DNA of 64,000 nucleotides, taken from assembly GCA_040954595.2 (NCBI GenBank), contig CM082594.2, forward strand, positions 5,897,862 to 5,961,861. The letters are read 5' to 3'. The DNA is from Balanoglossus misakiensis (Eukaryota; Animalia; Hemichordata). Of the stretch, positions 9,813-42,100 are shown piece after piece (the first letter of the stretch is position 1; each line of letters begins with the position of its first letter). The notes beneath the pieces were generated by a model. It saw nothing but the letters and a program-made list of their open reading frames with translations, was not told the DNA's origin and searched no databases. Position numbers and translations under genes: made by a program.

Positions 9813-9818
9813 TATAAA
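9813..9818 (+). promoter_or_regulatory. Candidate TATA box for exon 1A
   Basis: TATAAA in a CpG-rich stretch about 290 nt upstream of ATG 10104; motif match only. Confidence 0.3.
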
Positions 9819-10103
9819 CAAGCGCGTGTTCTGACAGAGCATCGATCCGCCCGTGTTAATCGCGGAAACAAATCAGATGGTGTAGAGCTAGGAAAAAAAG
9901 ACGGACATGTCGTATTAAGTCAGCTGTTTTATGGATAAGTGTAATTTAATCATATTCCAAGATTTGTAATTTCTCAAGGACTAAGGCAGATCGGGATTTT
10001 TTTCTCTCCTCAAATCGATTTCCCAGTAGCTGTGTGTGTCAAGTGGTTGGGTCATCAAGAATATTTCAGCGTGTCTTGGTTTAGCTGGGTTTTATCTGCA
10101 GGT

Positions 10104-10806
10104 ATGTTGCTTATGCGACAGATTCCTGTAGGTTGCCTGCCACTTACCGTCCTGCTAATGTGTATCAGTTGCTGTCGAGGCAGGGATTTTATCATCGGCG
10201 TGATGTTGAACTTGAACGATGACCAGTCGCAGTACTCGGCCAGGAGAGTGGCGCCGGCGATCGACATCGCCGTCGACAAGGTGAACAACGACACCGCGCT
10301 GCTGCCGTCGCACCGGCTGCGGGCACTGCTCAACAACAGCGGCTGCGACACCATCCCGGCGCTGAAGACGGCCACGGACATTCGCACCATCAACGACCCG
10401 GACGTGATCGTCGGGCCGGCGTGCTGGGTGCCGATGGACATCGTGGCCTCGCTGGCGGGACACTGGCGCCTGCCGGTGGTCTCCGGCGCCGCCGTCGACC
10501 CGACCTACAGCAAGCGGCAGCTCTTCCCCACCCTGACGCGCACCTACCCCCACCTGCTGAAGCTGGTCTCCGCCTTCGTCAGCATGCTGGAGTACTTCGG
10601 CGTGCAGCTGATCGGGATCCTGTACAGCCGCGACGGCGGCGACCTGCTGCAGTACATCACGGCGTTCTCGCTGGACAAACTGGTCCAGTCGACGACGACA
10701 AACGTCTCTTTTTCGAGCGACCCCGCAGGTACCAGGGAGATAAGTAGTTCAATGTCCCCCGAAGAGAAGGAGGAGGTGTATAATAGTGTCACTGGCGTCT
10801 CAAGAA
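10104..10806 (+). CDS. NPR1-like: Alternative first coding exon 1A: signal peptide plus N-terminal part of the ligand-binding domain
   Basis: ATG 10104 (or 10113); [26 protein letters not shown] signal-like segment; motifs [38 protein letters not shown]; donor TCA AGA A|GTAGGT, phase 1, compatible with exon 2. Confidence 0.9.
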
Positions 10807-13800
10807 GTAGGTACACCTTTATTCCCCCCACACACTTAAATTGACAAGATTATTCACTCACTGCCTAAACTCAAGCTGCGACAGCCTCAGTTGTGGTGAT
10901 TTCTCCACGCGACAAAAGTCGCCGTAGCTCTATCTTTAGTAAAATTCTATCGTGCCTTTGTCCGTTCGCTACGCCATTGAAATCCTTTAAAATCTGACAA
11001 AAGCGCGCTTCACCGATCTCGTCCGTGCTTCGTCATTAAGTCGCATGCAATATCATATACAATGTAGGATGTCATATTTTGGGTGCATTATTGCGTGGAT
11101 GTACAGCCTTACCCAACGTAAAATCTCCTCTATCCCCGAGAAGATTAGCGTGCCTGGCGGCGTTCCGCTAATTGACGTACTTTTGCTCGTTTGCTATAGA
11201 AATGAACCACCACGTTGTCGCAAAACCAGTAGCCTCGGATATCGCAAAATACCCCGGGGCTGACACGCGGTACTTAATCAATCTCCGAATATCTCTCATC
11301 CTAAATGAAAAGTCCTTTCCATAATTTCGTCCGTAAATCTCCAGTCTTTATTACTGACTTGAGAGCATGTTGGCAGTGTGCTTCTATTCAAATAAGCCTC
11401 TTGATGAAAGACTAAGCAGTACTGACAAGGTATTCTTGTCAACATAGTCTGAGACTGAAATGTCTGGTGGTTTATGTCAACCCACAGCTCAAGCAGCAAG
11501 AATTGTGAATGTATATGTCGACGAAAATTCCAATCTGAGCTGCATAATATAAAATATATTATTTTCATATCGTGCGATTTTTGCCTGCTGCGTATATAGT
11601 GTTTTGGGCAAATTTGTGAAACATTGAAATTCCACTATGACAATGACGACATCACAAAATGGACTAATACCACACAGACGAGATGATTCTAATTGAATAT
11701 GCAAATAATTTCAGTAACCTTTACCTCAGCCGTGCGCGTTGCGAGACACTTCCATCGCCATTCACATCTCATGCAGCGGTTGAAACGTATGCCGTGTTTC
11801 GCGCCAAAGCTATTTAGCTGGAATATGCGTAAGTCAGATTTGGGAGAGTAGGCGAACCGAATAGTGTGCTCCGTTGCGCTCTTGCTGCAGTTGGAATGCC
11901 TTTGAATATATTTGATCGATTTTCTTGAGAGTCTCGCGAGATGCGACACTTCGATTCGAGCAAAGCTGTATTGATGAAGGTATGAAAAGCTTTTGATCAA
12001 CGCAAGGCAGCATTGTTTCCTAAAAGCCACTGTAGATATTAAACTCTCAGTATAAAGCGGGGAGAGCAACAGAGCGGGGACAGCAGACGGCAGATGAGAA
12101 CACGCGACGAATGTTGCTTTATTTTAAAAAGGCTGAGAGAAAAATTTTGCTTCGTATAACTCGTAGAGTTTATACACACAAGTGATTTGTTTCTGAACTG
12201 AAACCTTCAATTATTCTGGGCGTCTGCGCCTACTCTCTCTGTTTGGATGTCGCTGACTTGGCGTATGTTCACACTTCAAAGTTTAAATTGGAATTTTCGC
12301 GAGTCAAGATGAAGCCTGGCATAGCGCTGCGTCTGTTCCGATTACTCTTGGCGTTGTCAGTGTGCGGCGGCGGCGGTGTCAGCCACGCCAGAGAATTCCG
12401 CCTGTCCGTCATCCTGAACATCACCGATGACCCGTACGCGAGTCCGTTCACGGCGACCCTGGTCAGTCCGGCCGTCGAGGTGGCCGTCGACTCGATCAAC
12501 AACGACACCAGCCTGCTCCCGGGCCACAGCCTGCGGGCGATGGTCAACAACAGCGGCTGCACCACCACCCTGGCCGTGTTCACCGTCACCGACGTGCGGA
12601 CCTTCTACGACCCGGACGCCATCATCGGACCGGCGTGCTGGGTGTCCATGGACGTCATCGCCCCGCTGGCCGGCCACTGGAACCTGCCGGTCGTGTCGGG
12701 CGCCGCCGAGGACCCGACCTTCAGCAACAAGGAGAAGTTCCCCACGCTCACCCGCACCTACCCGCACTACAAGACGCTGGCCAACGCCGTGGTGAAGTTT
12801 CTGAACTTCTTCGACCTCGGCTACTTGGGATTCCTGTACGACATTGAGAACCAATCGAACTTCATCATGGCGTTTTCGCTGGACGCGGTGGTGATGGACA
12901 CGCCGAATGTCACGTTCACGAGCGACCCAGCGGGCAAGCGCGGCTTTAGGGCGACCCGCACACCTCTGGAGGACAGACTGTCGTTATATAAAGATGTCGC
13001 AAGCAGGTCGAGAAGTAGGTCTCCCATTTTAAATAAATAATCACATTTCCAGTATTAAACAATAGGTGGCTGTCGTTTAACCAGCAGGTTCTAGTCAGAG
13101 CAGGTGGGGTGCACCTGGTTTACATATTTGTGTACTTGATGTTCCTGATATAACACACAAGTATAAGCGTTGATCAAGATCTTTGACATTCACCGCTTAT
13201 AGTTCTCGTTATCTGCCGTCTTTAGAGGTAGACGTGCAAAATCACCATTGTCAGAGGGGAATATTTTCTCTAGTTTGGCTGTTTGCGTCAATTGAATCTT
13301 GGCTTTCAGTCTGGCCGTTCACGTCTCGAAAGTGGCGGGCTCGGTCCACGTGATTTTGAATAACGCACCCAGGTTTTTGTGCCTGAATGGGTTGCGAACG
13401 AGGCTGTTGGTGATTGGCACTGACCGCAGAAATCCAGACTGTCATATCCCGAAATACCGAATGTAATTCCGCTCGTTACTGTCATAAAATGACACATTTC
13501 CAAATCTCTCGACACAAGAATGCAACGCCTTGTTTGCAACTGGCAGAGACAATCCGCACTGGCCGCGAGGTCTTCGTTTTCTGATAAGTTAATTTTCCGT
13601 GCCATTTCATCGCATTTCGCGAGCCCCACGCTCTGTATAGCGATGGTATTTTAGAATTAATTGGCCAGCGTGAACTCAGAAAGAACTATGTTACAGCGTA
13701 TGCGAATAATGTTGTAGCTGCGACGAACACTCAGTTCCAAACACGAACACCCGCTCATTTTCACGTTCGGAAACTTATAAGATTTCTCAAAACAGGAGCG

Positions 13801-16800
13801 TGTAAATATTCCTGTTTTTGTAGCAAATTGCTTACTTTTAAATTGTGTCGCTTGGTAAAGATTACTTCGTGTCCTTTTCTAGGCTTCATCGCACTTTTCA
13901 AAAGGGAGATTCCAGCAAAATTTGAATGACAAAACCAAAAAATAAATGATCAGGTGTTCAACTCGTGCTGTTAAAAAACGTCATTCCTTGTTACTTCAAC
14001 AAGGAAAACCAACTCCGTGCTCGTTTCATCCACATGGAGTTTTTTGCGGCGTCGTAATTACTTTCAGCCTTTGATAAACGTGACAGTCGTAAAAATACAT
14101 TATTTTCAGCTGAAAAGGAACAGTCGGCCAAACGATTAGTGGTGTTTTTCTTCTTTTTAATGACGTGTTTACACCGACAACATCGCGATGCGAACACTGG
14201 GGATAATGACCGAAGTCTGCAGGTTGCCGAATTCTAATTTTTCGATGTTAGTCAATTATATGCTAAACTTCCATAGGTTTCTCATTGCCCACGAAGAAGT
14301 TATTGTACCGGAAATGGAAGCAATTTGTATGATAATCCAGATTAAGTAAAACGGTCTCTTCTCCATATACCAACACGGTTCAACAACTGCCCGTTCCGTA
14401 CGCATCTTGCCCACGGTCGCGCATGCAAATTTAGCCATAGTTACCATGGTCAGCGGAGTCTTAGCCAATCACAGACTTTCACTTGGTTGGAGTCACATCC
14501 TCAGAAGGTTTGCGTGCATTCTTGTACATATGTAAACAAGAGAGGAGAGTATCCCTTTAGCATCTTGATCAACCATCCTTAGTGTGCTCGTATTCCCTTT
14601 TCATATTTCGTACCCTAAATTTCGGCAAACATGTGATATATAGCCAAAATACGCCAAATCACAACTATAGTTGTCACTCTGAAGTTGGAATTCTGCTCAA
14701 CATAAAATGGAGGCAAATGTGAATTATAAATGTAATATATATATATGGTATTAAGGACAATATATTTATCGATGGGCAGTTTGGCACGTCAGCATGGTTT
14801 AAAAACAAAGCTCCATGCTTTTAAATGTAATCAAGCAAAGGCGCGACCTGATAACATTTTCTTGTGATCGATTTTTACAAAGCGTAAATGGTCCCTTTAC
14901 CATTCACTGATAAATGTATTAGCGAATAATCCCAGCAGTTGAGTTGAGTTGAGCAGTTGATGTATTAATGTGAGGGGTTGCAGAGTGCTTGGAAATAATA
15001 TGAATATGCACGCGAATGAATATGTAACTATGTCTATATTGCCGGATGTAAAGAAAACATGTTTCGACTAATGTGGGTGTTTTAATACTGGGAGATATTA
15101 TTGTTTGATGTGGTTAGACTGTGTGACACAGTCTCGGTCAAAGGTCGGTTTAAGGCATTTTTGTCACCCCCTCTTAGATATCAAATGGTTCATCCCTAAT
15201 GCACGCTTTATTATATCATTGACTGACGATGTACGTTTCATTCAATTATAAAGGAAGCTTTCAAGACATGATTTTCCCTGCGATAAAGCTTCTCCGATAT
15301 TATATCGATGCCGCGTTTACATTGGCATTTGTTTTCAAAGAGAAGCCCTCGATATATAACGCGCGACATTTACTCGCTGATCTGCCAACTCGAAATGTAT
15401 CAGCGTACTTAACAGGCAGGAAATGAATTCTATTTACAAGTTTCCGCGCTGCAAGTACCGAGCCGTTTGTCGCTCTTCCGTCGACGGGCGAAATCAAAGC
15501 GATGGCCCCGGGGCCTGAATCACACACGGGGGATGGGACAGAAGACAGTGACATTTCTGGAAAAAGACCCGACCGTATTGTCGACTACTTTTCGCGCAAG
15601 TATCGCCCTCAGCGCGTTTGTTTCCTTGCGTCCACAAAGCTCTGATTGTCGGGGGAATTGGACACGGCCCCCCTTGATCGTGCTGCACACCACGCGTTAC
15701 ACAAAACATCATCCCGATATTCTTTGAAAGCTGAGTGTGTTCACTAGGGTGTTTAAATAGTCAAGGCATCAATCGAAATATATAATGATGTGGTATTGTA
15801 GTAGAGCAGTGAGCTACGGTATTAACCATATAGACCCTGGAACGTACAAAAACATTTTTGTTTTGTTTTTCTCCGATTCGCTTTGTTTTTTCCTGTACTG
15901 TACTGTACTGTACTGTACTGTACTGTACTGTACTGTACTGTACTGTACTGTACTGTACTGTACTGTACTGTACTGTACTGTACTGTACTGTACTGTAGCC
16001 AATTCTTACCACTGTGCAGTTGTTACTTGCCCTATATCTTTGTGCGTATACTTTCCGCAATGAAACTGACACTACGAGATGCTTACTACAGAGATGAAAC
16101 GGACGCATCCAGAAGTTGACAGCGCTTATCCAAGCACGCCAGCTCTGCTGATAGATTCGAGTCGTCACTTATCTGTTTGGCTGTCGCGGACAGACATGCC
16201 CCAAGTAATCTAGTACACGATTCTCCATCAACCGCGTTTTCTGATGATAAACGACTGATTTAAAATGGAAAGGTTTTGCTAGGGCTCGTACTCCAGACAG
16301 CCATTATTAACCTAGTATCTTCTTTAATCATTCCCTTGTAGAAATATTTCATTTTGAATTATTCTCTTACTTGGGTAATTGGCCAGTGCTTAATCCTCTC
16401 TTAAAGTAATGAATCGATAAATTAAATTTTCAACAAAATGCGAAATAAATCTTTAGCTCAGTTATAAAAAAAATGAATGTTCACATAGAATCTAGAAAAG
16501 GCTAAGTTCAAATTCGCCAAGCATCACCAATATATATCATTTTGCCTTTGGGACACTCAAGACTTGCCAAAAGCGAGTAATCATCAGATATTTATATAAT
16601 TGGACCTTCCATTTTAGGCTTGCCGAAGCAGCATGCACCCTTATTATACTGTACCTTTGGGGGGACTGTGGCGATAGACTGCAAACGACGATGGAGTCGT
16701 GCGGTGAACTCGCCTAACCTGTCTACTGAGTGGAGCCCTGGTGCCTTGAAGTTAACCCTTTGAACGCCTATCTGTCAAAATGTCATTTTCTCTCATTTCC

Positions 16801-19800
16801 CCCTTAATTTTAGACCAAGTGGACATACGTATCCACTGTCTTCAGGTCCTAATCAAAATTGGAGAAAATATGCGGAAAAAGTTATGAGGGTTTTACATTT
16901 TTGAAAGATGACGACAAGTTAATATGGCGTTCAAAAGGTTAACATTATTATCGATCGACGAGCCATTTCAGTAGTGCTGGAACTGAAAACATCACCGCGA
17001 AGACGGCCAGCTGCTTCTCTTTGACGAGGTCTTCGTTTGAAAAGATAGCTATGGACAGATATGTATATTAGCGAAAAAAGATGTTCCTCAGACTGTCATT
17101 TCAACATTCCTTTCAGCATTGTGCTGTAAGTTGCAAGCATCTCAGCACAGTTCTTATAACCGACAAAAATACATGAAATCCGATTATGGATGTTGCATTT
17201 TGGCATGATGTCTCTACAGGACGTTTTAGTAAGCCTTCACAGAGAGTAAGTTGTGAAATCCGTTTTAATGAGGGAAACAGACTTTATATGAACTTTGATC
17301 TGACATACAAACTCACCCATAATACATACAGGTGTTGCGTGTACCCGATGTCATATTGATAAATTTTTAATCTTTTAATAGACTCAACATAAATTCATAT
17401 TTGACAGTCAAATGATATAATTTCGTACTTATAGTGACACAACAACAAACTATTTACAAAACCATGTAGAGGAACCTAAAATAAAATATTGCACTCTTAA
17501 ATGACAGACCAAAACTGAAAGATTATTCATCGATTTTCAGACATCCCCCACCCTCAAACAGGAATAAAACGGAAGTCGCCCATTACCTCATTCCCAGTAG
17601 CTCACCGTCTGTCTCTGTAGACACGCATCCCAAGATGCCCTGCCGTGCAACCACTGCGACTGTCCACGTTTTATCACAAGGTGCGGGCAAGGTGATTGAT
17701 GAATATAGGTATAAAGTACATACCTAATGATACTTACACATCAGCCAGGCTTGTCTTGGATCGGAACTATTTGGCAATGGAAAGCGGGTCATTTCCTTAA
17801 CGCAGGCCTGTATCTCTCAAAGGATCACGTGCGCAAATTTGACAGATTGCTAAATCTAGCCACGCAAGCAACTCGAGGGTAATGTTGTAGCGCTACATGC
17901 AGATATCAGGCAAAAAAAATTTCGATGGTAAATGTATCTGCAAAAAAGTTTTATATTGAATATCAGAAAATTTGACCATCATAGTAAGCGCATGCGCATT
18001 ACACGATTCCCTGCGTCACCTGCAGGGCGTCAACCACCAAATCAAATGCGAGATCTTCCTTAATTTGCCCGATCAGCCGCAAACGTGTCAGCCACAAATG
18101 GAAGTCGATGCTGCAGACAACAAAAACCGTATATTCCCATAGATGCCGAACAATGATATTCGTAAATCAATATTCTGAAGGTTAAACGTAGCGCTTTGAT
18201 TCGCGATAATAATACGGTGCCGTGGCATAAGCAAAGAAGTCAAGATCAAAATTTGATATCATATTTCCGTTTCGCTTTGATTGGCTGGTAACAGACTTTT
18301 GAGCATGAAAACTATTTTCAAAAGTGGATGGTGGGATTATGCATGGACCAATTAACCCGCTTGGCTTCGAAAACTGTAATCTCATCGGTTCTGTGTAATC
18401 ATATCGGGGCCGGTTGCAACACGAGTATATTTGGTTGATTGGTAATTGCCGCGATGATGCGTGATGTAATCCGGTGAAAAATATGTTTTGGTAACCACAG
18501 CTTTTGAAATAGTTAATACATGTTCATCGAGTGAACAGCGTTCCTGAAATACCTTTCGGTGTGCGCGGTCGTCATCAACTAATCTTGCGCATGCTCTTGT
18601 GATAAAAGATGACCATCATACACACCTTCCGTCCCGCTTGTAGACACGAGAGTGAAAAATCTCGCCAAAATGAATAATCGGTCTCTACCATTTATTCGTT
18701 TTGGGTGAGATTTTACTCTCATATCATACAAGCGGGGTGGAAGTTGTGTGTGGTTTAACGTTCATTCACTACATACATACACATGTACCTTAACATAAAC
18801 GGTGTCTTGTATCAAACATAATTAATGGAAAATTGGCAGCGAGAGAGAGACTTTGTCCCTTTAATCACGCTTCTGAGATGTTAGCCACGTGACACTTTGG
18901 AAGACATTCACAAAGTGATTTTATTATCACGTGAATAACTTCCATATGTTGATATTTCCGCAGTGTTGTGGAAAACTCCCGTAAGTGGGAGTTACATGAA
19001 AAACGACAAGAGCTTGAGAAAACAATATCCCGATCTCCGATTAAATGTCCGCCGTTCCTTCCTGTCTCGCAATGTCCATTTCAAGTGAAATTAATCACGC
19101 CAGATAAATCAATCAAATGGGCGTTTTGCCAAGACTGACAGGATTAAATAGTTCGACAAATGTTGCGTGTGCGGTTTTAATTTCCGATAATACTCATCGA
19201 AGGCAGTAAATGGACAGGTTCTGTAAAGTTGTTGATTAGCGGCGCGTTTATGGGGCCTTCTGATGATTTCATTCGAAGGACGATTAAGCATCTTCGCCAC
19301 TTTGAGTTTAATGTGCTTGCGCGGTGAGACGCAATCAGCGGTACGATAATAACGACGGCACTTTTTTATCGGTTTCCTGTCTACCGCGTTCCCAAATAGC
19401 CGAATTAGGTATTTAATCATTCCCGTGCTTGGCCTATCAATCCTTCTCTGTATGTGAATGCAAACGAGGAAGTAATGGGTAAAATCTAAATATAAAACGC
19501 AGAAAATTAAAAACCATGGGTGTATTATGTACACTCAATCTGACGGCATAGCCAATTGAAAATGACACTCTTAAATGTAACTTCAGATGAAGGGAGATTA
19601 TTATGAATTGGCAAATTTGATGGTAACTGGTAGGGCTTCTGACATGTTTTAACCCTTGAATAACTATCCCAGTTTCACCTTCTTAAAATGTTTCCTCATC
19701 TGCCATATTCACATTCCGTCGACACGCTGGGCAGCTGATCTTTTCACCGCCCAGAAATGGCTTTGATTTGTATAGTGGGTTACACTAACTTATCAAAGGC

Positions 19801-22800
19801 ACTGTATCGATCTGCGCGGCCGTGTTCTCAACTAGGTCATACTGAGCACGGTTTTCGAGAGAGAGGAATATAATTGATCACATAAACAGCTGCAAGATTA
19901 CGTCAAGAGGCTGAAATCACAATAATTTCATGGCCGGTGAGGTCACAAACCATTAAAGACCTTCGCGAGTATATCAAACCGTTAAACTCGGTCAGTCAGT
20001 CAGTCAGTCAGTCAGTGTTTTGTTTGTGTGCGTGTGTACATACGTACGTACGTCAGTGCTATGCTACCCTGGTGTATTTTGAAGTCATATCGATATACGC
20101 ACATAATTATTTGACGCTACATTGAAAAACTTAAACTACGGAAACGCGTATTACACCAAGCGGAAAACATCTGATCCACCACAGAACTTTGAATGCATTA
20201 CTGATTTTGATGAGACGATATATACAAAGAGGGACACTGAAGTGTACAATTCCAATGTATCATTATCACTTTTTTCATAATCCAATGGCTTTGGTATATT
20301 GCATTGGGGGGGGGGGGTTGTACAAGAGCGTGGGCTGAAAACAAAACAGAACTCCGAATGGAAAGTAATGTACTGTTAGATTTCCCGTCAACCGTTAAGA
20401 GTTGCAGCAATTGACTGCGATATCCAAAAATCGTGGCGAGACGCCAATTTCCTGGCCGTGTCCAATAAAGAGGCTTCTTCACACGCGGAGCCTGCGATGC
20501 AGAAGGGAAATATTAGAAATCAATTGCGCGGAGGGGGCTGGGCTTAGTCAGGCATATTAACACTTCCCCTATCACGTCGAGATTATCTCCGTAGACCGCA
20601 CTCGGCGTTGAACACGTAGTGCATTCAAGCCCCTTTTCTATAGCACCAGGCTGTCGCCTCGAAAACGAAGTGAAACAGATATAACACGTCGATTTTCAGG
20701 ATAAGAGAGTTGTTTGTGTCCCGCCACGCGTGAAACATCGCCAGCCGCCGAGAACAGACACCGGAAAGACCGCTTGTGTGGAACTTTAGAACGTCCTAGA
20801 TTGTTGTAGTTTGTTGAAATGCAAGTAGGCTGATGTCTAAGTCTTGCAAATAACTGTAGATGGACATAAAAATACTCGTTAAGGGAGAATCATTTTATTT
20901 CTTGGGGAGAGGGTGGAAGATTTTGGTATCAACAATTGTTTTAACCACTGTTACAGCGATTTTTTTATTCGATTATACTAGGCCACTTTTTCTTCAAGGC
21001 AAGACACTGCAGATGAAACAAGTGTTTTCCTCGGCACCATCTGCCAACAGTTTTTTCCCCCAAAACCCTCCATCCACCCCCAAAAATCAAATGGTTCCCT
21101 CCTTATTGAGCGTTGTTCATGCATAAAACGCAACCACTTTCACAATCAAAACTATTGAATACACTGGGACTAATTTCTTGATTATCTGACTTCGCTTCCC
21201 TCGCGAAACTTCCCCTAATGCATGCAACGATTTCAGAGTAACAACCTGTCGTCGAGGCAAAAAAATAAAAATAGAGTGACGCAGTCTCTTCTATTGATTT
21301 ATATTTGTATCGAACGAGATTTGTGAAACACGTTTCTTCAATCAGCCGACTAAGGCCTGCCAACTTACCCGCGTCAAAATCAATCCCGTCACCCGCAAAG
21401 ACCCATAGTCGTCAAAACGGTTTCTGTTATGATTCCGGTAAAAAAGATGCGTTGCTATTCAACTGTTCAATAACAAAGTTTCGACTTAACAGTACAAGAA
21501 CAGCGGAACAATCGACGATAACAGGTCTTCTTCTAGGAAGAGCACTTTGCTAAAATTAAACTTTGAAACGCCGAAGTTTTGTCACGTCATTGAAAACGCC
21601 TTGATGAGTAACAGCTGTGGAAATCTAACAAACGCATCGTCTTGAATAGGGATACAAATCGTGGCATGCTATGAACTACTTTACGATGAGCTACGACAAC
21701 TTGAATACACTTTGTTCAATGGTTCCATTCTTTCACAGGCCATGAATAACGTTGATAGTTTATTTTAGCAAATGATATCGCGTTTTAAGGACAGATGTGA
21801 TGATCATTGTGGTTTTTTCTGAATTTTAACGAGACAAAATCTCTTAAGAGTAAAACTACATGTATTTTCAACATCAGAAATGTTGTTTTGAGATCATAAC
21901 AGCACTTACTATACAACTTATACAAACTGTTCTCATCTCCCAAACGACCAAGGTAGAACACGCCTTTGCTGACTTGAGTAATACTTTCATTAGGTACATG
22001 TTGAGTTGTTGTAAATGCTACCTGTTGTCCCGAAGAACCGGCGAGGGATACCGTATTAATGACTTCACTCTTAAGTTTCAAACTGGAAACACCAGGTGTG
22101 TATTGCCCGTGAAACTGTAATACGGTGTGATACAAGACGTTCCGGTTGCGTTTGCTGGCAGCGTCGCGTACAAGCTTGGATACTGGATACAACGAAGAGA
22201 ACATGTTTCGTTTTGGCAAACGGGGATCGTATGATCGTTAGAAATTCATGCCTTAAAACGACGGGATTAAATTTACTAAGTTATTAATTTCTGAGATTTC
22301 GCTCATATTTCAACAGCATCCACCTATTCTCAAATCGTTTCAAATCTCATATTAATTTTCTTGGAAAACCCGTAATGTTAGATCAAGATAATCTTGAGCA
22401 AATTTTTGGTGCGACAAATGTTCTCTTCACAATGTCATTTACGGCCATTTTATTGTGATTTAGAACTAAACGCACACAGACTAGATAATCCGCACAGATT
22501 TCATAACCGGGGAATAACAGACACCGTGGTATGTAATCTGTGTTACATCATCGACGTTGCAATATCCGGTACAGTCTCTCATTCGCCTGAAAAAAACCCG
22601 TAATATTCCTTTAAATTGCTACTCGGAGCTCGAGGCACACCCGTGACGTAACGATTTTTGAAGCGATCGGATTGCGAGACCCAGATGCCTGAATTGGCCA
22701 TCTGCAAAGGTCGACCTGTTGTCAGTTGTGGGCTGTACGTCACGGTTTCCGCGCTGACTCATTGGCCAGAAACTCTTGCTGCGGTTTTTGTCTCTCAGCG

Positions 22801-25800
22801 GGGAGCTCTGAAGGTACATCGCTCTACCGGCTCACAGGAGCACGAAAGTGCAAACATAATTTATTAATCTGCACGATGTGGTCGGTCAGAAACGAGTCGC
22901 CCAGGCGCGTGAAACAAGAACCAGATCTTGTCACGCTGTTCCCATTACCTCTCTTGTTCTCGTCAAAACACGAGTGTTCAGCACGTTCTTTATTACACTG
23001 TCGGTCACTGGTTCAACGTTAAAACTGTATCTGTAAAACATTAGCGCTTTTGCAATTAACGTCTCTAGACTGTGAACACCTTGCAAGGTTTCAAAGTTTT
23101 ACGCCTGTGATGGTCACTTGTGACGCATTCGCATCTTGCCTGGCGATAATATTAGATTGTACTCTATTAGGTTCGTTAAAGATTTTCGAAACTACATTTA
23201 AATTCAGGTTATCAGGCTACAACTTTTGTTTTACCAAAAGGGAATTTGACTTGATAGTTTAATGAATACTATTATTGTCTGTAAAGGGCATTTGCCAAGA
23301 AATGTGAAATGTTAAAGGTTGATTTGGATTAATCGTGACGATTTCTCCCTGCTTTGGGGTAAAACGATATCTCTGGAAGCCACTAGGGAACATTATTTAT
23401 TTATTTCTGTACAATTGGGAAAAAAATCAGGACAGGGTCGGATTTTGCCCAGACAGACACAGGGGACCAGTTACATCGTTAAGTAATCGGCATTTCTCGT
23501 GACGCTTCTGCCCACCGTTTGCAATTAATGACATTTCCCTGAGCGTTTACCTGCTCGATTCTGCTCGCGCTAAGCCGACACGCGCTGAAGGACCACGCTG
23601 TCGCGTACGCCCAAAATAGCAACGACCCAATGGCATTGACCGTCGATTGCGCCAATTTGAACTTAATGGGATCTTGCATCCTCGTTTTTTGCTGTGACAT
23701 TTATATGTTACACTGATTGATGTAGCGAACGAGCCCGCGGTGGGTAGGCGAGGTACATGTAGGCGTCGCCAGACATGACGTCTGGGCAGCCGACATGATG
23801 TGTGAAGTGTGTGAAATGTCGCACAGTGCTCTGCCAAATTACAGCGAAATGTGTGAAAATTCAATCAACACCTTCTTTAAGAAAAGACAGGGTACCCCGT
23901 GCCTATACGGCTCGTCCAATGACCCCTTGTCTACACACGGCCGTACTTTGTCAACTTATATGCTTATGTGCAATTTGTTATTTTTACCGAGTTACACAGT
24001 GAACATAGAAGTTTGTCGGAGCCAATAATGGTTACACAGGTGAATAAATATTTGAAGTGTAAACTGCTGACAGTTAACGAAATTCTCAATGCCTGTCATA
24101 CACAGTACGTTATTATGAAAGAACAGCGAGAAATGCCAGCTGAAAAATTGAATTCCGACCCAGCACCATTACAAGGCGGCGGATGTGTACTAGTTTCATA
24201 TGAAAATGCCTTAAACGTGTCGCGTTGCAAAAATTTACATCGTGTGCGTATATAAGTCCAAATCATTGATCCGAATTTACCGTTAAAATTGTCCGAGTCA
24301 GTATATAAATTGAAAACATTAATTTCATTGTTTGGACCATAGGTATGACAATGCTTCATGAAACACTGAAATTTAAAACGCTTTTAACTGAGTCAAGAAA
24401 ATCGGCGTTGTTCCTGTAAGCAAGTACAGCATACATGTACTTAGTAATAGACTCCAGACTCTCGACCGAAGTTAATTGCAGTGATGTTATAGCGATGTGT
24501 AACGGGAGAACGGGGACCCAATTATATTCTCTGTCTAAGAGGGGCTTTTAGTTCTTTAAATACAGATGAGTTGTCCTTAAATACACTTGCTGTGGTTAAG
24601 TGACTGGTATTATATAAAATACCGGTAATAACGGTTCGCTTGAAGGGTAAGCGGATGTCTGTGTTGTTTAGTAATGTCTCCTTTGAATTCTTGCCGATTG
24701 CCCGGATGTTAGAGGGTGTACTGCCGTTGTTTTCTGTTTTCTTGGGGGGGGGAGAGAGAGACGAGCAGGGAAGACACTGCACCAGGGTTCATATTACGAT
24801 GTGATTTATCTGAGTGCTTTCCACGCGAGACATTGCACTGCTGTAGGAAAATACCGTGCTGTACTCCCTTATTCAAGAGTGATGCAACGTTATTCTGTAA
24901 CTATCTCTTGATATTCATTTGAAAGGAGCAACGAACGCTCGGGCTTATTTTTTTATCAGCGCAATGCAATTTATATTAATGAAACAAACCTGGCTGGCAA
25001 AGGCTTGCCGTGAGGACTCAATCATTATTGCTTTTTAAATAATTGAATCTATAATAAAGATACCGGGAGGAGTTTTTTGGGGATTGGAAGGAGATAACTG
25101 CTTTTAAAGTACCGTGCATTACCCTTTGAAGTAAGCCCAACACTTAACTATAAGTTGCACATCGCCCGATTTGGTGCTTTTCGTAAAACTGTTAGCTTAT
25201 ACTGTCTTCACTGTGAACAGGGTGTGGTTAGGTGCAATCTCAGTACCGCATTGCAGAATCAGTCACGACTGAATGATCAATGATTACTACGTCATGCGCC
25301 AAGTGTCGCCATGGCACCCAGGAATTCACCCCGAAGTATTTTTCATTTCATTATTAATAATGGCCGCCGTATGGTGAAACTTCTTGTAGAACACATGGGA
25401 GTTTGTTTTGCAAGAATTCTTTTGCGAGAGTTTGTCTGCCTAGTTTGGGGCGGATTGTGTGTGTATATATGTACGTACGTACATGTATGTATGTGTGTTA
25501 GATGGTAGCCTTTATGTAATAAATCATTCAACTTTTCATCAAGTCCACCTCCGCCACCATCAAACGATTCCCTCAATAATTCCATCGACAGGCACAATAT
25601 TGAAGCGTCGTTATGATTGTGGCCACATGGGGTGTACATCACCTACTATTGAGCGAAACATATTTCAGCGTGTATGGCAACTTCCGTCTGAGCCATCGGT
25701 GAACCCCCAGCGACCACTTGGGTGAATCCACACAGACATCGGCTCGTCACGCGGCCATAAATAATATTCCCGACCGCCATTTGTTGAGATCACAACGTTG

Positions 25801-28800
25801 AAAATTCCATTAAATTGCCCCGCGGGCCAGATGGCACCACTAATTGCGTCATAAAACCCGCGACATCAATTACGCGAACACTATTCTCGCACGAGGTGAC
25901 ATTTGATCTCTTAGTGAAATTTCACATGACGTGAATTATGGTTCATGACGTGAAGAGGGAGAGAGGCATCTTCAAGATTTCTTCTTGGCAAAGCGACATT
26001 GCTGAGAGATGTGATCTCCTGTGTTTACTCTCTCATCCTAACCAAACCAAACCAAACCAAATAAACCAAGCCAAACCAAACCAAAACAAAAGTCGTTTTA
26101 TCACACTGGACAGCCTTAGTACATACATGTACATGGCGATACCAGAAAAGGATGTTTGGGGTATGCAAGGTTTAGGGGTCACGAAGATGACCTATTAAAA
26201 ACATAAACAGCCATCGATGTTCCAATATCGTGTGATGCAAACTTGCCACACGACGTAATGATGTCAACGCGCGTAGCTGTGGGGGAAATTCTTGGAGAAA
26301 ATCAAACGTCAACAATAATTATAACCCATGCCTGTTGAACCAATATCAATTAGTATCAGTATCAACCAGCATCAATTTATTCTACTCAACATTACTGCAC
26401 ACAATATGTAATCTCTATAATTGTACATCATTTTGAGCGAATATTGCGCCTATATTTGATGTGAATAGGTTCAGCCCCCCCCCCCCTCCCGCCTGTGGAA
26501 CTCATAAACTAATGACAAGTGTACGCGCGTCTTAATCTGCAAAGATTTTAGAGTCAGTATCTCCATCTTCGTATTGAAGATTTTACTTCTCTTTAAGTGG
26601 TAGATGGTTTATCTAATGAACGTAAAATTCAAGTCTCTCTTTGTGGCAGGCAGCGCCTTGGCAAAAAAAGCCGCATCGAAAATAACCCTTAATGGGTATG
26701 TGAACGGACTAAAAGCATTTATTTTTTTCCCCAGCCAAAGAAAGGAATCAAAGATTTTCAGTGTAAGAGCTCCCCGCGATTATCGATCCATCTATCTTTA
26801 CGGCCTGGCGTGCCCAGATTAGTATCATGCTCTTTCATTTTCTGCTCGTATTTATAGCCATAATGAAACTCAAATTTGGCCACGAGCAGCGTTTATCATC
26901 ATTCGGCTCGCCCGCGAACTGGCAGAGTGAGACCGCAATATGCACGCACTCAACATGAATTTATATTACCAGATCCGCGGACTGTTACTCATAAAACCTG
27001 ATGATCTATGGGCAGAGGAAGATTGAAAAGGCTGATCTCCGTCTTTGATTTATCAACGTTAAGGAGAAAATGCCCCCTTTTCCTTTCTAATCTCTTGTAT
27101 GTATTTCCTCCACGTGTGCTGCATTCAAATAATTCCACTTTGATTCATGGGAAGGGCGCATTCCGTTAAAGCTAAGGGGTCAGTCATACTACAGGCTATC
27201 AAAATATACGCGGGGCATAGCAAACTTTGCTGGTCTGGGTGATGGGGTCACGTAGTTCCCAACAGTTCTTACTTCACATTTTGAACACTTTCAACCGAAC
27301 AAAAACATCGCATGAACATACACAGAAATTACTAAGCTGTCGTGTCTTTCAATACTGTTACAATTACAGCAGGTCGCGTTCAAAGCACAGGACTACACAC
27401 GACCAATCAGAATTCGTCTTACAACGATTAGTAGGTACAACTCATACGCATGCGTGATAAAACGCGCACGGAAATCAAAATGGCGTCGAGTGTGGGCCCT
27501 TTCATCGAAGCTATCGAGTCGCCAAATACATCGAACAACCTGCAACACAGCCTGAACTCGAGGACACTCTCCACCAGTTGGATGTTAAAGTTAGTCTTTA
27601 AATGTACATTGGTATGCGAAAAACCGCAGTGAATGTATTTGAAGGTCTACATTTATCAAATGTAAATGTAAATTGAAAATGATATAGCGTTAAACTGGAA
27701 CTTGAATGTCATGATCATATTTCGTTCGCCGAAAAAAAGTCAATAACGAGCGATATTTGTGAGAAAAAAAACAATTTCCAATGTACATTCACATTGATCG
27801 ATTTTTCCCCCTACTTCGTAATATAGAAATTAACAGCGGCGCCTTCAAAGCGCCTGCACTGAAAGTGTTGAAACCTCAACCGTGTGGAAAACCAGGCAGA
27901 GCAAAATGGAACAGGTCACGCATGTGTTTGACATAGTTCTCTGGTAGTTTATAAATGCATGTACCCCGTCATATAAATGGCGCCTTCGCGCGCACGTGGG
28001 GACTTGTCATCGATAGCGCGATTACCAGCTGCATCGGACCCGCAGGCCACGCTATTAAAGACGTGCAAAACGCGAGTCGATCTTCTGCTGCAAATCGAAT
28101 CAGCGCGGTTAACACTGCAAACAGACGCGCATGTCAATTGTTATTACTCACGGCCGAACGACACATTTTTACACAATTCAATCGGCAACCGTACCGAACA
28201 AAGTAAACGCTCCAAACCCCTAGCATTTTCAAATACCAACTCAAGCGAAAATAATTTCGAATCGGTAGTAAAACGTCTTGCAGCTTAAATCCATAGCATG
28301 TTTAATCCCCTCTTTTACAATAAATCGATTTTCAGTTACAAAGAACCGATTAAATCAACCGATTAATATTTACCACTGCGGTGTTAAATGCGAGCTTTGT
28401 AAACGTATATTTGTTCCCAGCCGACTCTCTTGAACGTAACCGCGAACATATTGTTGATTTGAAATTTCTTGTCACGATCCCTTCCACTGAATGGTTTTTC
28501 CCAGAAAACTTTCACACTCGCGTGCGCTATAATTCGAACTGTAATGCAATATATGATATTTCCATATCAATTTGCGTAACTCACTGGGCATATTTGTTGA
28601 AATTATCCACGCTTTCTGCTATTAGTTGCCGGGAAATTTCATTTGACCCCAGTTGTCAGTTTACGCTCCGTCGGACGCGGTGCAAATGTGGCAATCTTCC
28701 GCATTGGCAGATTTTCCAGGGAGTGTAATGGTGGTTACCGAGGCAACCTGGCTGTTCACTCTTGCCGAAATAATGCAACCCGGGGCCAATGTACATAACA

Positions 28801-31800
28801 TTCTTAGCCGGATGTATAATCTACTTTAGGAACTTTAAAACACCTTAAACTAGGTCCTGCGCAAAAATCCGTGTCTGATGTGTAGACACGCTGAGCGTGA
28901 CAGGTTACTTTTTACAAACACCAGAAAGAGTTTGAATAATTTGATAAAGCTGCGCAACCGAGATTCTTGTGCAATGGCAAAGTTTTTGTGTCCAAGGTTT
29001 GGAGAGAATGCAAACAGCGACGGCGGCGGCAACAACAACAACAACAGCAGCATCAAAAACAACGAGAAAACCACGTTGATCATAGGCATATTAAGGGGAA
29101 TATCACGTACTCCATAACCTTACATATAGAATTTCGAGGAACTTCTGTTGTAAAATTGTCATGTTCTTGAAATTTTCTCAAAAGGTTCTGAGAGAGAAGC
29201 TTATAAAGGAAACACTAATGTAACTATGCTTGTTTTCGCGATACTTTCCCATATTTGAAACCCTCTATCTACAAAACACTCTGTTGTGTTTTCGTGATTT
29301 TAAAAAGTTCGTTGAATAAGTATAGCGTCACGTTGATAGTGCTACAGACAACATAGGCGTGAGTGAGTGCGTAAATGGGAATACACGTATTTCTATTGCC
29401 CTTCTTGAAAAATCTGTTGGCGACGCATTGTATAGTTTTGAAGACCACTGCAGCCAGCAGCTACTTGGATAGTAAAACTACTAGTATCTAAAAAGTGAAT
29501 GATTGATCACACATGCACAGTTTAATAATGGCGAGCCTGGAACAAGCACAAGAAATTAAGCAAAACAAACCACATGAAGTGACTGTAAAATTGATATAAA
29601 ACATGTACAAAGGAAAGTGCCTGGTCACAACAATTAAGGAATGGCTGTGTATAAGTGCGCGTTGCAACGTCACCCATATACTGGTGTTGGAATCAAGTCG
29701 CAGGGCCGGAGCTTGGATTACCATGGTAATACGTAATCCCATAACATTTGAATGGAGATTGGAAAGTTTCTTTTTTCAATCTATAGCCACCAAATGAGAT
29801 TCTGCGGAGAGGGCCGGCCAATATTTCGGCGCCACTTAAAGCGGCACGAAACAGAACTAGCACGCGTGCTCGCAGACTTGGCCAATTCCGTGGTCATTTT
29901 CGTTCATTTCGATGTAACGATAATCGTAATAGGCACCTTCTGACGGCGGTGCATCCGATCCATTGACGGACAACTCAATAATTGGCTGCAGCTTTGCGTA
30001 TTACGTATCTATTTGCCAGGAAATTTGCAATTAAAGGAAAAAAGGAGCCACTCGCCGAAATTATTAATTGGTTTCCCGTAATGCCTATTTCCTTCAATAT
30101 GTTCTTTCCCTTCGTTTCACTCAGGCGATGACGATATTATACATGTTATGACCACCGGTGTACATAAATGGGGAGGGGGAGGAGGAGGAGGAGGAGGAGG
30201 AGAGAGAGAGAGAGAGAGACACAGAAAGAGAGATCATTTACCCTGAATAGAAAGGGAATCATCGGAAATCGCTTTGCTTGGGCAAACAACATGCTTGTGT
30301 GAGCATTACATAGCAGTTTGATGCCTTTATTCACTTGTTTAAAATTTCATGGTGGTTCAGACCTGTATAGAGACTACGCGATTTAAGTGACTGCACACAT
30401 GTTACCCTTGTGTTCAACTCCAGTCACAAATTAGTGCGTGTGACAATTTCTTTCGTATAGGTTGGCCTTATCAAACCGCCGCATGCTAAAATAAATTAAT
30501 AAAGCCTTCCTCCATGGACGAGACACTAACATGATTTAATCAGTTTTAGTTATTAATTTCTACCAAAACATTTCTGGTGTGTGCACATGGTACTCCAAAG
30601 TCAGAGAACGTGGACAAAATGAAACTGACGACATTTATTTTGTTTATGTTTCAGTCATCGTCATATGTGCCTCCGCCGACGAAGTCAGAGAAATCATGCT
30701 CCACGCGTTCGACCACGGGATGATCAACGGCGAGTATGCCTTCTTCAACATCGAGCTCTACAGGGACCCGAAGTACGGCGAGTATCCGTGGAAACGCAAC
30801 GACGAGCGGGACGACGACGCCAAGAAGGCGTACGAAGCGCTGATGACGGTGACGCTGCTGCAGCCGTCCAGCCCGGAGTACATGGAGTTCTCCAACCAGG
30901 TGAAGAGCCGCGCCAAGTCCAACTACAATTTCACCTACGAAGATGACGTGGTGAGAACACAAATTCTATTAGCCATTCTCTTCACCATTGCACGCTATAT
31001 TCTTGTACCCCTTTGGACAACAATGCATTGCGGTTATGACGTCATCTTTGTGCAAAATCGGCCATTTTTCTTTTGCATTGTTATGGCCATATGTGAGTTG
31101 TACACCCGTTTATTATCTTATTCAAAACTGTGCACGCATACTGATATTTGCATGCACATCTATAAGTAAGTTCATTGAACTAAATTCTTGTTTGAAAGTC
31201 AAAATCACTCAAATAATCCAACAAAGAGATTGCAACGCAAGGGCCTTTAAAACATGCGTGCATCCGGTTTGATAGACACCAGTGAACTTAATCAAGGAGA
31301 GGCCAAGGCATTTGATTAATTGAACGAGCAAAATCATGGCCTCTAGTACAACATACTGTGTTCAGGGTTACAGGTCCTCGCTATTTTCAACATGAAAGCA
31401 AATGCGAACGTGAAGATTGCTCCAAAGTTAGTTTGTGTCAATAGGAACAGAGAAAAGACGATAATTTGTAAAGAAGAGTTTATCTAAGGATTACATGGTT
31501 ATTGCAGCTACTCGCAAATAAAAAAGGACCAATGAAGGTCAAGACATTAACTCGAGGGAAAATTCATTAAGAGCAATCAAAAGACGAAACTGGCCGATTT
31601 GAAGCGGTTTGATTTTTTTGACATTAGGACAAAAACACCGGTCGGTAGTAACATGTGACCAATATATTATCGTCTACAGCTTAACTGAAAATCGACAATC
31701 TATGACAGCCCTAAGGCATTTCACATGACTATTTCTGTGATCGATTGCATCGTTACTGGTCAAAATTTAGCTGGAACAGGTGTTAGCGAAGTAAATGATG

Positions 31801-39132: not shown

Positions 39133-42100
39133 CCCGTCGGCAATTAACGCAAGCTGTTCTTAAAGCGGCGCGTCGTGATAACACCGCGTTGCAGTTGAGC
39201 ATGTTAGCGCCAATTCACGTATCCCCTTTGGTGCTCATCAAGAAAAAAATACACGACTTGAATTCCCCGGAGTCAAATTCCTACACTTTCATTTCTTTTT
39301 CAGAGGACTTCCACCTTCTTGGCATCATCGGAGTAGTTCTTGCGTGTTTGGTGATTATTGTCATCGTCATTGCCCTTCTTGTGTACAGGTACGTTACCAT
39401 GGGGACAACACGGACCCGTGACACTTCTACAAGTACAAGTTATTTTTTTACAAGTTTTCAAATGCTCACTTACTGGTGTGAAGTGTTTTCTTTTTCTTAG
39501 AAACGATCTGACTTCTCCAGCCTGAAGAATGTTCGCGAGGCCAAAAATAAAGTAGCATTCGCTCCAAACTGTATCAGACACGAATGAATGTCACAAATTG
39601 GTATCTTTTTCCTATAAAAATACTTAAGTGATCTAATTTTATCAATGCATGAATTGAAAAAAAAAGAAATACGATTGATTAAGAAATGTTTATATGATTT
39701 TCATGTGAAAAACGTATATCGTTTGTGATAAGTATAAGTGATAGGTATATTAGTTAAGTACAGACTCTGAATCAGCCGATTCACGAGTACAGGCTGTCTC
39801 GTCCGCCATCAATATTCAACGTTTGTTTCTTGTAAGTTGTTCTTATCTGCAGTTGTGAGGTTTTTTGTCATAAACACTCTCGCCTGATAACATGTATGCT
39901 ACATCTGCCAATATTGTCACTCTGTCGATTTGAAACGCCATGACCTTTCCGCGTGGGGCTCATTGAAATAATCAGAAAACAGAAATTGCTCTATCAATAT
40001 TTCAAATCTAATAACTATCATCAGCTGAAGCACTTCCCAAGTGGAGAAATTAAATATCCGAACGAGAATTTCACTCCCCGGGGGCGTTTTTTTGTTTTCA
40101 TCGCAGGAAGTACAAGCTAGAAGCGGAGTTGGCCAAGATGACGTGGAAGGTAAACTGGGAGGACATATCGTTGAGTAAAACCGACCGCAGCCGAGTGATG
40201 TCGACGGCAGCTGTCAACGCGGCGTTCAGCAAATCACAGGTATCTAGGGTAAGTGTAAAACGCTCAGCACCGTATACTTACATACATACACAAAGTGTGT
40301 CTTTTGATTAAAACTGGGTCACTCGCTAAGTCTCTCTACGCGGCGTTCCTATAGTTTCAACCCTCAAAGTACACTCCAACCAGCCGTGAATAAAGTAACA
40401 CCAATTCACCTCGGGGCAGGCCTGACGATGTTTCCGATAAAGCAACTATCAAATCAAGATTGTCGAAACTTTCGCAGCTGCGCGGTTGTAACGCGAATTA
40501 AAGGTATACAGTCACCTCCAATTTAAATATGCCCATATATGGCTGAAATGGCGTATTTGAGCGTTCTAAAGAACACATGGTGGCGCTCGTTTTTTTTCGC
40601 GTGTGCCACCCACTGAAATTCTGTGATTGGCTAGATCTCAATTTGCCATGGTAACTATAGCTAACTTTCAATGGGTGACCGTATACCTTTAACAACCAAG
40701 GTGCGCGCGAATGAACAAAAGTGGGAATGGAAAAAGTGCTATAAATGGCCCTTCTGCGGCGATTTCTGTTTTTATTCCATGGACTGTGAAATAGAATAGA
40801 AATTTAGTACAAATCCAGCAATTTATGGAATGTTACTAATTTACCGTTTCAAATCACAGAATATATATAAGACGCCTTAATACGACTTATTGCGTCTGGG
40901 AGGCTTTGCGCGCCTTGTTCAATTTTATTTAATCGAAGAAATAAAACACCTCACTTTTTCAAGTCTTGTTGTACTGCAATCATGGAAAGTATACACGCCA
41001 AGAACGTTTATACCACAAACTTTAATCCCACCAGGACGTGGAGAACACCTTTAAAGTTCACACTTTCATTTTCACTTGAAAATAGCTGTTTTGTCGGTAC
41101 ATGTCTATGTGTTTTGCAACTGGGAAACCTCCTGCAGGCCATATTGATAATTGTTTCGTACTTTCCAAGAAATATTCATATTATCACCCCAATCGTTGCA
41201 ACCCCCAAGCAATTTACCAACACGCATCTACTAATTGCATAAGTGATGTTGTTCGTTCAGAGAAGCAGTACCCGCTTATCGTCATTTGGAACCGCGGACA
41301 TGGATAGACAGATATTTACGAGGGTGGCACAATACAAGGTAATGCAATAAATTCAAAACTAAGTTGTATGATTACACTGGACGTATCTTTATTTATGCCC
41401 CGGGTAGAGCTTAAACTGTAGCTGACGAGAGAAAGTTTACCCTGTCAATAGCTGCACTCTATTTGATAATAAAATTAAAAAGCAGAAATTGCAAGTTTGC
41501 ATAAAGCGTCTGTTGCCTCAGGGTATAAGGGTTATGAAATTTTAAAGGGAACGTCTATATAGTTAGCAAACATGTCTCGCTTGACAAGGTGACATGTATG
41601 TGGCAAACGAAGTTATGTACATATTTAAATGATAAAAAAATGAAACGAATGATGGAAAGTGTTAAGTTTCTACGTTAATATGTTTGCCGTTCTGGCTGAA
41701 GTGTTTAGCTGTTTTTTGGCTTCACTTCTGGAATGTGTGCCAAATATCGTTCCTGTTACCCCCCCCCCCCCCCCCCCCCCACAGTCGGGCGTGACGGTTG
41801 ATTTCTCGGCATTAATGGAATAAGAATAAACCAAGATCTCGACGATTCTCACCTGGGGAGATGGATCGAACGATAACTATGCAAATGCAACCATCTATCT
41901 GATTGTAAAAACACTATGCATATCACGAGTGTCGGATGCACCATCAAGAATAACTGCATTAGACCGCAGGCAGGTGATGATTTTTATGTTTGTGTGTGCT
42001 GCTTACACAGGGCAACGTGGTGGCCATTAAGAAAGTCAATAAAAAGAAGATTGAACTGACAAGAGATGTGTTACTGGAATTGAAAGTTGTAAGTATTCCA

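Follow-up and report, generated by a model that had tools for sequence, protein, structure and literature searches.

Two paralogous N-terminal exons and one constant exon set in an NPR-A/B-type receptor gene of the acorn worm Balanoglossus misakiensis

In the acorn worm Balanoglossus misakiensis, a gene for a receptor guanylyl cyclase of the NPR-A/B type carries two intact paralogous N-terminal exons, 1A and 1B, and a single set of constant exons. We consider it likely that these exons have their own promoters and that the gene gives rise to two receptors, probably with different pockets. According to this model, 1A or 1B would be transcribed from its own promoter and then spliced to exon 2, placing two likely different ligand pockets on one transmembrane/kinase-homology/cyclase module. 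Which pocket a cell displays would depend on promoter choice, and the A and B pockets would differ in their ligand or in their affinity. If both promoters are active in one cell, so that both isoforms are made there, AB dimers with a composite pocket could also form. Such dimers are plausible, given that A and B have identical intracellular parts and that NPRA or NPRB is able to pair with NPRC, as a published account states (PMC10334801).

The gene lies in a 64,000-nucleotide stretch of contig CM082594.2, referred to here as the window. Its features, numbered from the first letter of the window, are the following.

9813..9818, + strand: TATAAA located 291 nt ahead of the ATG of 1A, putative core promoter
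10027..10101, + strand: exon-like stretch of 75 nt delimited by a strong acceptor and a strong donor; it may be a 5' UTR exon or mark an alternative donor
10104..10806, + strand: variable exon 1A, signal peptide and N-terminal half of the ANF-receptor (Venus-flytrap) ectodomain, phase-1 donor
12051..12056, + strand: TATAAA located 258 nt ahead of the ATG of 1B, putative core promoter
12309..13014, + strand: variable exon 1B, signal peptide and N-terminal half of the ectodomain, phase-1 donor
13015..30654, + strand: intron of ~17.6 kb, no further exon-1 copy detected
30655..30950, + strand: constant exon 2, the first shared exon, starting with the split Ile codon, 94% identical to Ptychodera flava
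32490-32625, + strand: constant exon 3, remaining ectodomain, GC donor
33235-33329, + strand: constant exon 4, remaining ectodomain
37174-37306, + strand: constant exon 5, remaining ectodomain
39304..39388, + strand: constant exon 6, transmembrane helix
40107-40248, 41261-41338, 42011-42088, + strand: constant exons 7-9, juxtamembrane/kinase-homology span
42502-42606, 42724-42795 (the latter with a GC donor), + strand: constant exons 10-11, juxtamembrane/kinase-homology span
44247-44409, 46826-46975, 47588-47756, + strand: constant exons 12-14, juxtamembrane/kinase-homology span
45744..45797, + strand: 54-nt in-frame cassette exon, kinase-homology domain
47868-48017, 48250-48373, 48946-49014, + strand: constant exons 15-17, dimerisation helix/guanylyl cyclase span
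49377-49551, 50708-50806, + strand: constant exons 18-19, dimerisation helix/guanylyl cyclase span
51450-51541, 52863-52961 (the latter with the stop), + strand: constant exons 20-21, dimerisation helix/guanylyl cyclase span

Exons 1A and 1B are tandem paralogous exons of similar length and equal phase, as in variable-first-exon clusters. An earlier note had described two exons of about 700 nt with open frames and their own ATGs, and the measurements bear this out: 1A has 703 nt (234 codons plus 1 nt) and 1B has 706 nt (235 codons plus 1 nt), neither contains a stop, and the gap between them is 1,502 nt. The common donor claimed there is likewise present. Both exons finish in AGA A/GTAGGT in phase 1 (slashes mark junctions), and the exon-2 acceptor ttcag/TC at 30655 yields ATC (Ile) with either of them. 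In a matrix built from the gene's own donors, for which the leave-one-out scores of the 20 real donors range from 3.1 to 10.2, the 1A and 1B donors each score 7.5; the alternative GT located 4 nt downstream scores only 0.7 and -1.6, respectively. Each exon starts with its own ATG and a hydrophobic leader (judged by eye), which in 1A corresponds to helix 9-24 of the predicted 1A model. The Pfam ANF_receptor profile matches both exons with E ~1e-28, at positions 2-152 (1A) and 2-129 (1B) of 353, and positions 181-267 are matched by exon 2. GC3 over codons 30-200 is 0.96 in 1A and 0.94 in 1B, compared with 0.88 in exon 2 and a background GC of ~0.41.

The two proteins, previously judged roughly half identical, share 50-53% of their residues, and their DNA is 71.5% identical over 477 nt. 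Outside the coding part, no DNA similarity was found between the flanks of 1A and 1B. A third copy of exon 1 was sought in the 64-kb window by tblastn with 1A, 1B, and three P. flava N-termini and by a GC3 scan, and none was found. The dN/dS comparison of 1A with 1B that had been proposed was carried out (NG86) and gave 0.40/0.64 = 0.63, a value at which purifying selection is not strong. With GC3 close to its maximum (~0.95), dS between the two exons is probably compressed, and the ratio was therefore treated as uninformative; it is no positive evidence either.

Each constant exon has one match in the window, in agreement with the single copy of exons 2-21 reported before. The 20 constant exons, which run from 30655 to 52961 with AG acceptors throughout and GT or GC donors, yield models without a stop, 1070 aa long for A and 1071 aa long for B. 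Inclusion of the 54-nt cassette adds 18 residues and keeps the frame, giving 1088 (A) and 1089 aa (B). The domain set is complete, comprising a signal peptide, an ANF-receptor ectodomain, one transmembrane helix, a kinase-homology domain, and a class III cyclase. Across the whole protein, NPR1 is the best solved-structure match by a wide margin (phmmer, 1040 bits), and the domain order equals that of vertebrate NPR1/NPR2 (GC-A, GC-B; 9bcl, 9dzh, 1dp4) over the full length. With the P. flava orthologue as proxy, a quick tree of the intracellular part, in which the outgroup is not monophyletic, unites it with fish NPR1 and amphioxus in a clade of 25 rows (SH-aLRT 92, not starred). Vertebrate NPR1 and NPR2 are known with a single N-terminal exon per gene.

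The closest database proteins are RefSeq models from the acorn worm P. flava, and these orthologues carry PF01094, PF07714, and PF00211. Six of the models (XP_070536699-704) combine three N-termini with two cassette states, their remainder being 100% identical; the insert of isoforms X1, X2, and X4, missing from X3, X5, and X6, corresponds to the 54-nt cassette. The N-terminus of X4/X5 is the orthologue of 1A (68% identical), and that of X1/X3 is the orthologue of 1B (67% identical), as compared with 52-53% identity for the cross pairs of A and B between the window and P. flava. The third N-terminus, found in X2/X6, groups with Glandiceps X1. Identity between the window and P. flava is 84-97% in the constant exons tested and 67-68% in the variable exons. 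Among 205 ungapped columns of the variable exons, 86 are invariant, 20 split A from B in both species, and 5 split the species. In a 13-row tree, the window and P. flava A exons pair with support of 94/93 and the B exons with 98/97. A species-specific duplication, in which the two window exons are forced together, was rejected (p-AU 0.00066). The pairing of A with A and B with B across species indicates that both exons are old and that both have been retained.

[quoted passage not shown] These isoforms come from species other than B. misakiensis and are mostly automated models (XP_ accessions for the most part) rather than curated cDNAs. Automated models of this kind are usually guided by RNA-seq.

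The swap layout does not appear to be peculiar to B. misakiensis; in database models, it recurs across six invertebrate phyla. In searches that used the constant ectodomain as query, 36 same-species groups were hand-picked from the best 120 of 430 and the best 120 of 254 matches, together with the cluster members of ten matches. At least one pair with different N-termini on a 100% identical remainder occurs in 33 of the 36 groups, and in those 33 the identity begins -2 to +1 from the exon-2 start. They represent 30 species: three hemichordates, two echinoderms, thirteen molluscs, one nemertean, ten insects, and one nematomorph. At the split codon, Ile in one isoform often stands against Val in another, in keeping with a phase-1 join, in which the first base comes from different exons. 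P. flava has three such genes, and Mercenaria has four N-termini. Within the 33 groups, the alternative part of two (Glandiceps g1 and Saccoglossus g1) consists solely of stubs of 6-13 aa. The three groups that failed are L. variegatus, in which the N-terminus is unchanged, and the Patella and Octopus pairs, which are separate genes. Taken together, the P. flava isoform models, the conservation of each exon across species, and the swap in 30 species support the earlier proposal of one shared receptor with a choice of two N-terminal exons.

No second full N-terminus on a common remainder was found in eight additional groups, drawn from nematodes (two groups), a horseshoe crab, a mosquito, a flatworm, and flatfish (two groups), with one other pair. 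In the two flatfish isoform pairs, unlike in the acorn-worm gene, the N-terminus is common to both isoforms. Nematode proteins are absent from the best 120 of 254 longer-protein matches, and the representative-protein search gave one Caenorhabditis protein, in a cluster of one. Judging from the models, the insect variable module appears to be spread over two exons. The Logan protein P0051 combines an oyster-type constant region with an N-terminus unlike the three others of its group; its contig is likely a transcript, since a protein of 1088 aa sits on only 4,659 nt. A metagenome scan with exon 2 returned six short, distant loci (33-47% identity) that are uninformative about the layout, and a search of the ESM Atlas returned ANF-receptor clusters alone. 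Swapped isoforms already sit in RefSeq without comment.

The position of the variable exons within the ectodomain bears on ligand recognition. In NPR-A, one hormone is held between two monomers, and the binding passages of the structural study name 18 receptor residues, from Asp62 to His195 (10.1101/2020.07.09.196394). The boundary between variable and constant parts aligns to KGR/VIYICSS of NPR1, at approximately residue 209 of mature NPR1 when the numbering offset is set from the Asn13 glycosylation site. All 18 residues named in those passages precede this boundary and thus fall within the swapped half, such that a swap of exon 1 would replace the entire pocket without altering the signalling part. 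The predicted 1A model (pLDDT 85.5) has the NPR-A ectodomain 1dp4 as its best fold match (rmsd 2.4 A over 212 columns). Three charged or aromatic ANP contacts of NPR-A were checked, and the P. flava B exon, when aligned to NPR1, conserves none of Asp62, Tyr88, and Arg95. At the Arg95 position, the A exons of the window and P. flava both have Ser, and the B exons both have Pro. The pocket argument therefore rests on position and not on conserved contacts. By analogy with the NPR-A contact positions, the variable exon would set ligand specificity, and, because these three contacts are not conserved, a vertebrate-like natriuretic peptide is an improbable ligand.

The upstream sites bear on how the two exons are selected. 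It is distinctly unlikely, in our estimate, that both exons are served by one upstream promoter, with a common non-coding exon spliced to 1A or, via the 10101 donor, past 1A. The 75-nt stretch in front of 1A is one reason to consider such a route: its acceptor at 10027 scores 7.7, and its donor CAG/GTATGT at 10101, which overlaps the 1A ATG, scores 8.5, a level of at least 8.5 being reached by 0.11 donors per kb. These sites resemble real ones, no such acceptor-donor pair exists in the 17.5-kb intron, and they may leave room for a 5' UTR exon or for a route that skips 1A. Insect models that join variable modules (Apis X1, Colletes X1, and Ptiloglossa X2, each with a whole YS-type module plus the second half of an R-type module) point in the same direction. 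However, no strong acceptor is found ahead of 1B. The best site in 10810-12309 scores 5.4, acceptor sites of at least 5.2 occur at 2.9 per kb of intron, and between the TATAAA at 12051 and the 1B ATG the best site scores 4.3. Moreover, a TATAAA precedes each exon at a similar distance, and known variable-exon clusters have one promoter per exon (PMC1885805). The TATAAA motif itself is present in 4.5% of 100-nt windows, with 27 occurrences over the first 53 kb. A homologous core promoter for 1A and 1B, plausible by eye, was rejected because 93 of 350 other TATAAA pairs score equally high.

Separate promoters could also drive two receptors for the same ligand, the duplication serving tissue-specific expression or affinity tuning with no new specificity; we regard this as a minority prospect, though a better one than a single promoter. 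It differs from the two-pocket model solely in the final step, that of specificity. A common ligand fits the 86 of 205 columns in which all four A and B exons agree, as well as the higher identity between 1A and 1B (52%) than among the protostome types (~25-38%). Conversely, a mere new promoter would not need a second 700-nt coding exon, intact in two species, and 20 A/B-diagnostic positions are kept across species, one of them at an NPR-A hormone-contact position. It is highly improbable that one exon is a relic, part of a separate truncated transcript (a secreted half-domain made by read-through of the donor), or an assembly artefact. Both frames do continue for a few codons past the donors before a stop, and exon-1-only proteins are annotated, for example, Saccoglossus P0126 and Patella P0151. 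Yet the P. flava models join the orthologues of both exons to exon 2, each exon is ~67-68% conserved across species with exon-like GC3, and an uncollapsed haplotype is ruled out by the 71% DNA identity of 1A and 1B and their unrelated flanks.

The model of two promoters and two pockets places a known device, variable first exons, in a receptor family where no description of it was found. Three features of variable-first-exon genes are present: tandem paralogous exons of the same phase, one constant set, and a start codon and signal peptide in each variable exon. The layout was unfamiliar to the earlier note in receptor guanylyl cyclases, and a literature search (few subscription papers, no supplements) gave no description of duplicated first exons. 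None are mentioned in the available parts of a family-evolution paper (PMC1435932), an NPRA review (PMC9846370), or two Drosophila papers (PMC13267572; PMC8710550). The UGT1A and GCNT2 clusters, as described in PMC1885805, encode enzymes, whereas the acorn-worm gene encodes a signalling receptor. In contrast to these clusters, the receptor genes have 2-4 variable exons each, the pocket lies between two monomers, some variable types are conserved across phyla, and the promoters are candidate TATAAA sites. Clustered protocadherins and chelicerate sDscam, in the accounts available, are likewise cell-surface proteins with variable ectodomain exons, constant intracellular exons, and possible isoform combinations in dimers. 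However, they have tens of variable exons and act in self-recognition, whereas the acorn-worm gene varies half of one ligand-binding domain and has a cGMP output.

Isoforms c and d of the nematode gene gcy-28 differ at the 5' end. The Caenorhabditis protein P0290, which we take to be gcy-28-like from its C-terminus, sits in the protostome clade of the same receptor family as the acorn-worm gene. In the relevant passages of published work on C. elegans, expression differs between gcy-28.c and gcy-28.d and a gcy-28.c promoter is named (PMC9249223), gcy-28d is used as a promoter (PMC4935464), and a functional splice variant of gcy-28 is noted by UniProt curators (PMC5290486). The odds are about even that gcy-28 c/d has the same arrangement and thus constitutes a published single case.

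The history of the variable exons was approached with a quick tree of 51 N-termini, which has long branches and a midpoint root. A mostly Arg-ending group comprises 36 rows (SH-aLRT 93, not starred), and a YS-type group comprises 15 rows, all protostome. Every deuterostome row falls in the Arg-ending group, and the acorn-worm exons of the present gene form their own clade (97). This topology suggests that the protostome pair is ancient and that the A/B/C set is an enteropneust expansion. Both one ancestral variable-exon locus with turnover and repeated origins at a permissive intron would fit these sequences. We tentatively raise the possibility, without favouring it, that the NPR gene of the bilaterian ancestor was already a variable-first-exon locus. 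Protostomes would have kept an R-ending and a YS-type exon, acorn worms and echinoderms would have re-expanded the R type, vertebrates would have moved to separate genes, and mixed dimers would add composite pockets.

If this scenario is true, YS-type and R-ending pockets have been retained from molluscs to bees, every orphan invertebrate receptor of the NPR family represents several receptors, and ligand screens with one isoform have tested one pocket. Invertebrate relatives of natriuretic peptide receptors are largely orphans. Before a 2026 paper, the eclosion hormone receptor was the only one of the seven receptor guanylyl cyclases of Drosophila with a known ligand, as that paper states (PMC13267572). 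If one gene provides two to four pockets, deorphanisation would be needed for each first exon, and knock-down through the constant region would remove several receptors together. The arrangement would bring a hormone receptor, one whose variable types are conserved across phyla, into the small set of variable-first-exon genes. It would also provide a testable account of vertebrate receptor specificity, in which whole-gene duplication took the place of exon duplication.

Some variable exons of these receptor guanylyl cyclases are entered in databases as short genes of their own (P0126 from Saccoglossus, P0151 from Patella, and the proteins P0144 and P0131), named "ANP receptor 2/3-like" or hypothetical, which adjoin receptors that lack an N-terminus. 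These split-off genes likely represent a repeated annotation error at variable-exon receptor loci. In the hymenopteran models P0182, P0184, P0206, P0236, P0262, and P0272, a complete YS-type module is followed by approximately 132 amino acids, which in Colletes, the case that was checked, correspond to the R-type module's second half. Such joined models are either genuine isoforms or artefacts of annotation.

Ptychodera flava has several paralogous receptors (P0001-3, P0058/61/70, P0106/107/108/113, and P0103), at least three of which have variable N-termini. All are listed with the same length of longest contig, 40,130,686 nt, and these data suggest that the variable-exon receptor genes of this acorn worm may form a cluster. 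The same picture is seen in Haliotis.

Within and beside the Balanoglossus misakiensis gene, the following features were located.

10027-10107: strong splice sites, an acceptor and a donor, on either side of a 75-nt stretch 5' of exon 1A
~14412-14486 and 40608-40682: two intronic copies of a 75-nt element, 77% identical, in inverted relative orientation
34271-36477: AT-rich minisatellite arrays in intron 4, with periods of 18-95 bp
45744-45797: cassette exon of 54 nt within the kinase-homology domain, with a conserved P. flava counterpart
55114-64000: satellite array of about 101 copies of an 88-bp unit, 98% match

The strong donor 5' of exon 1A overlaps its ATG at 10104, and a second in-frame ATG follows at 10113. 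Before exon 1B lies an out-of-frame upstream ORF (12247-12312, starting at 12247); as read by eye, its terminal TGA overlaps the 1B start codon. Two of the 20 constant-exon donors, at 32626 and 42796, have GC instead of GT. The satellite array begins approximately 2 kb 3' of the receptor stop codon.

Gene models of the P. flava orthologue occur both with and without the cassette exon. In combination with the variable exons, this cassette would double the number of receptor isoforms.
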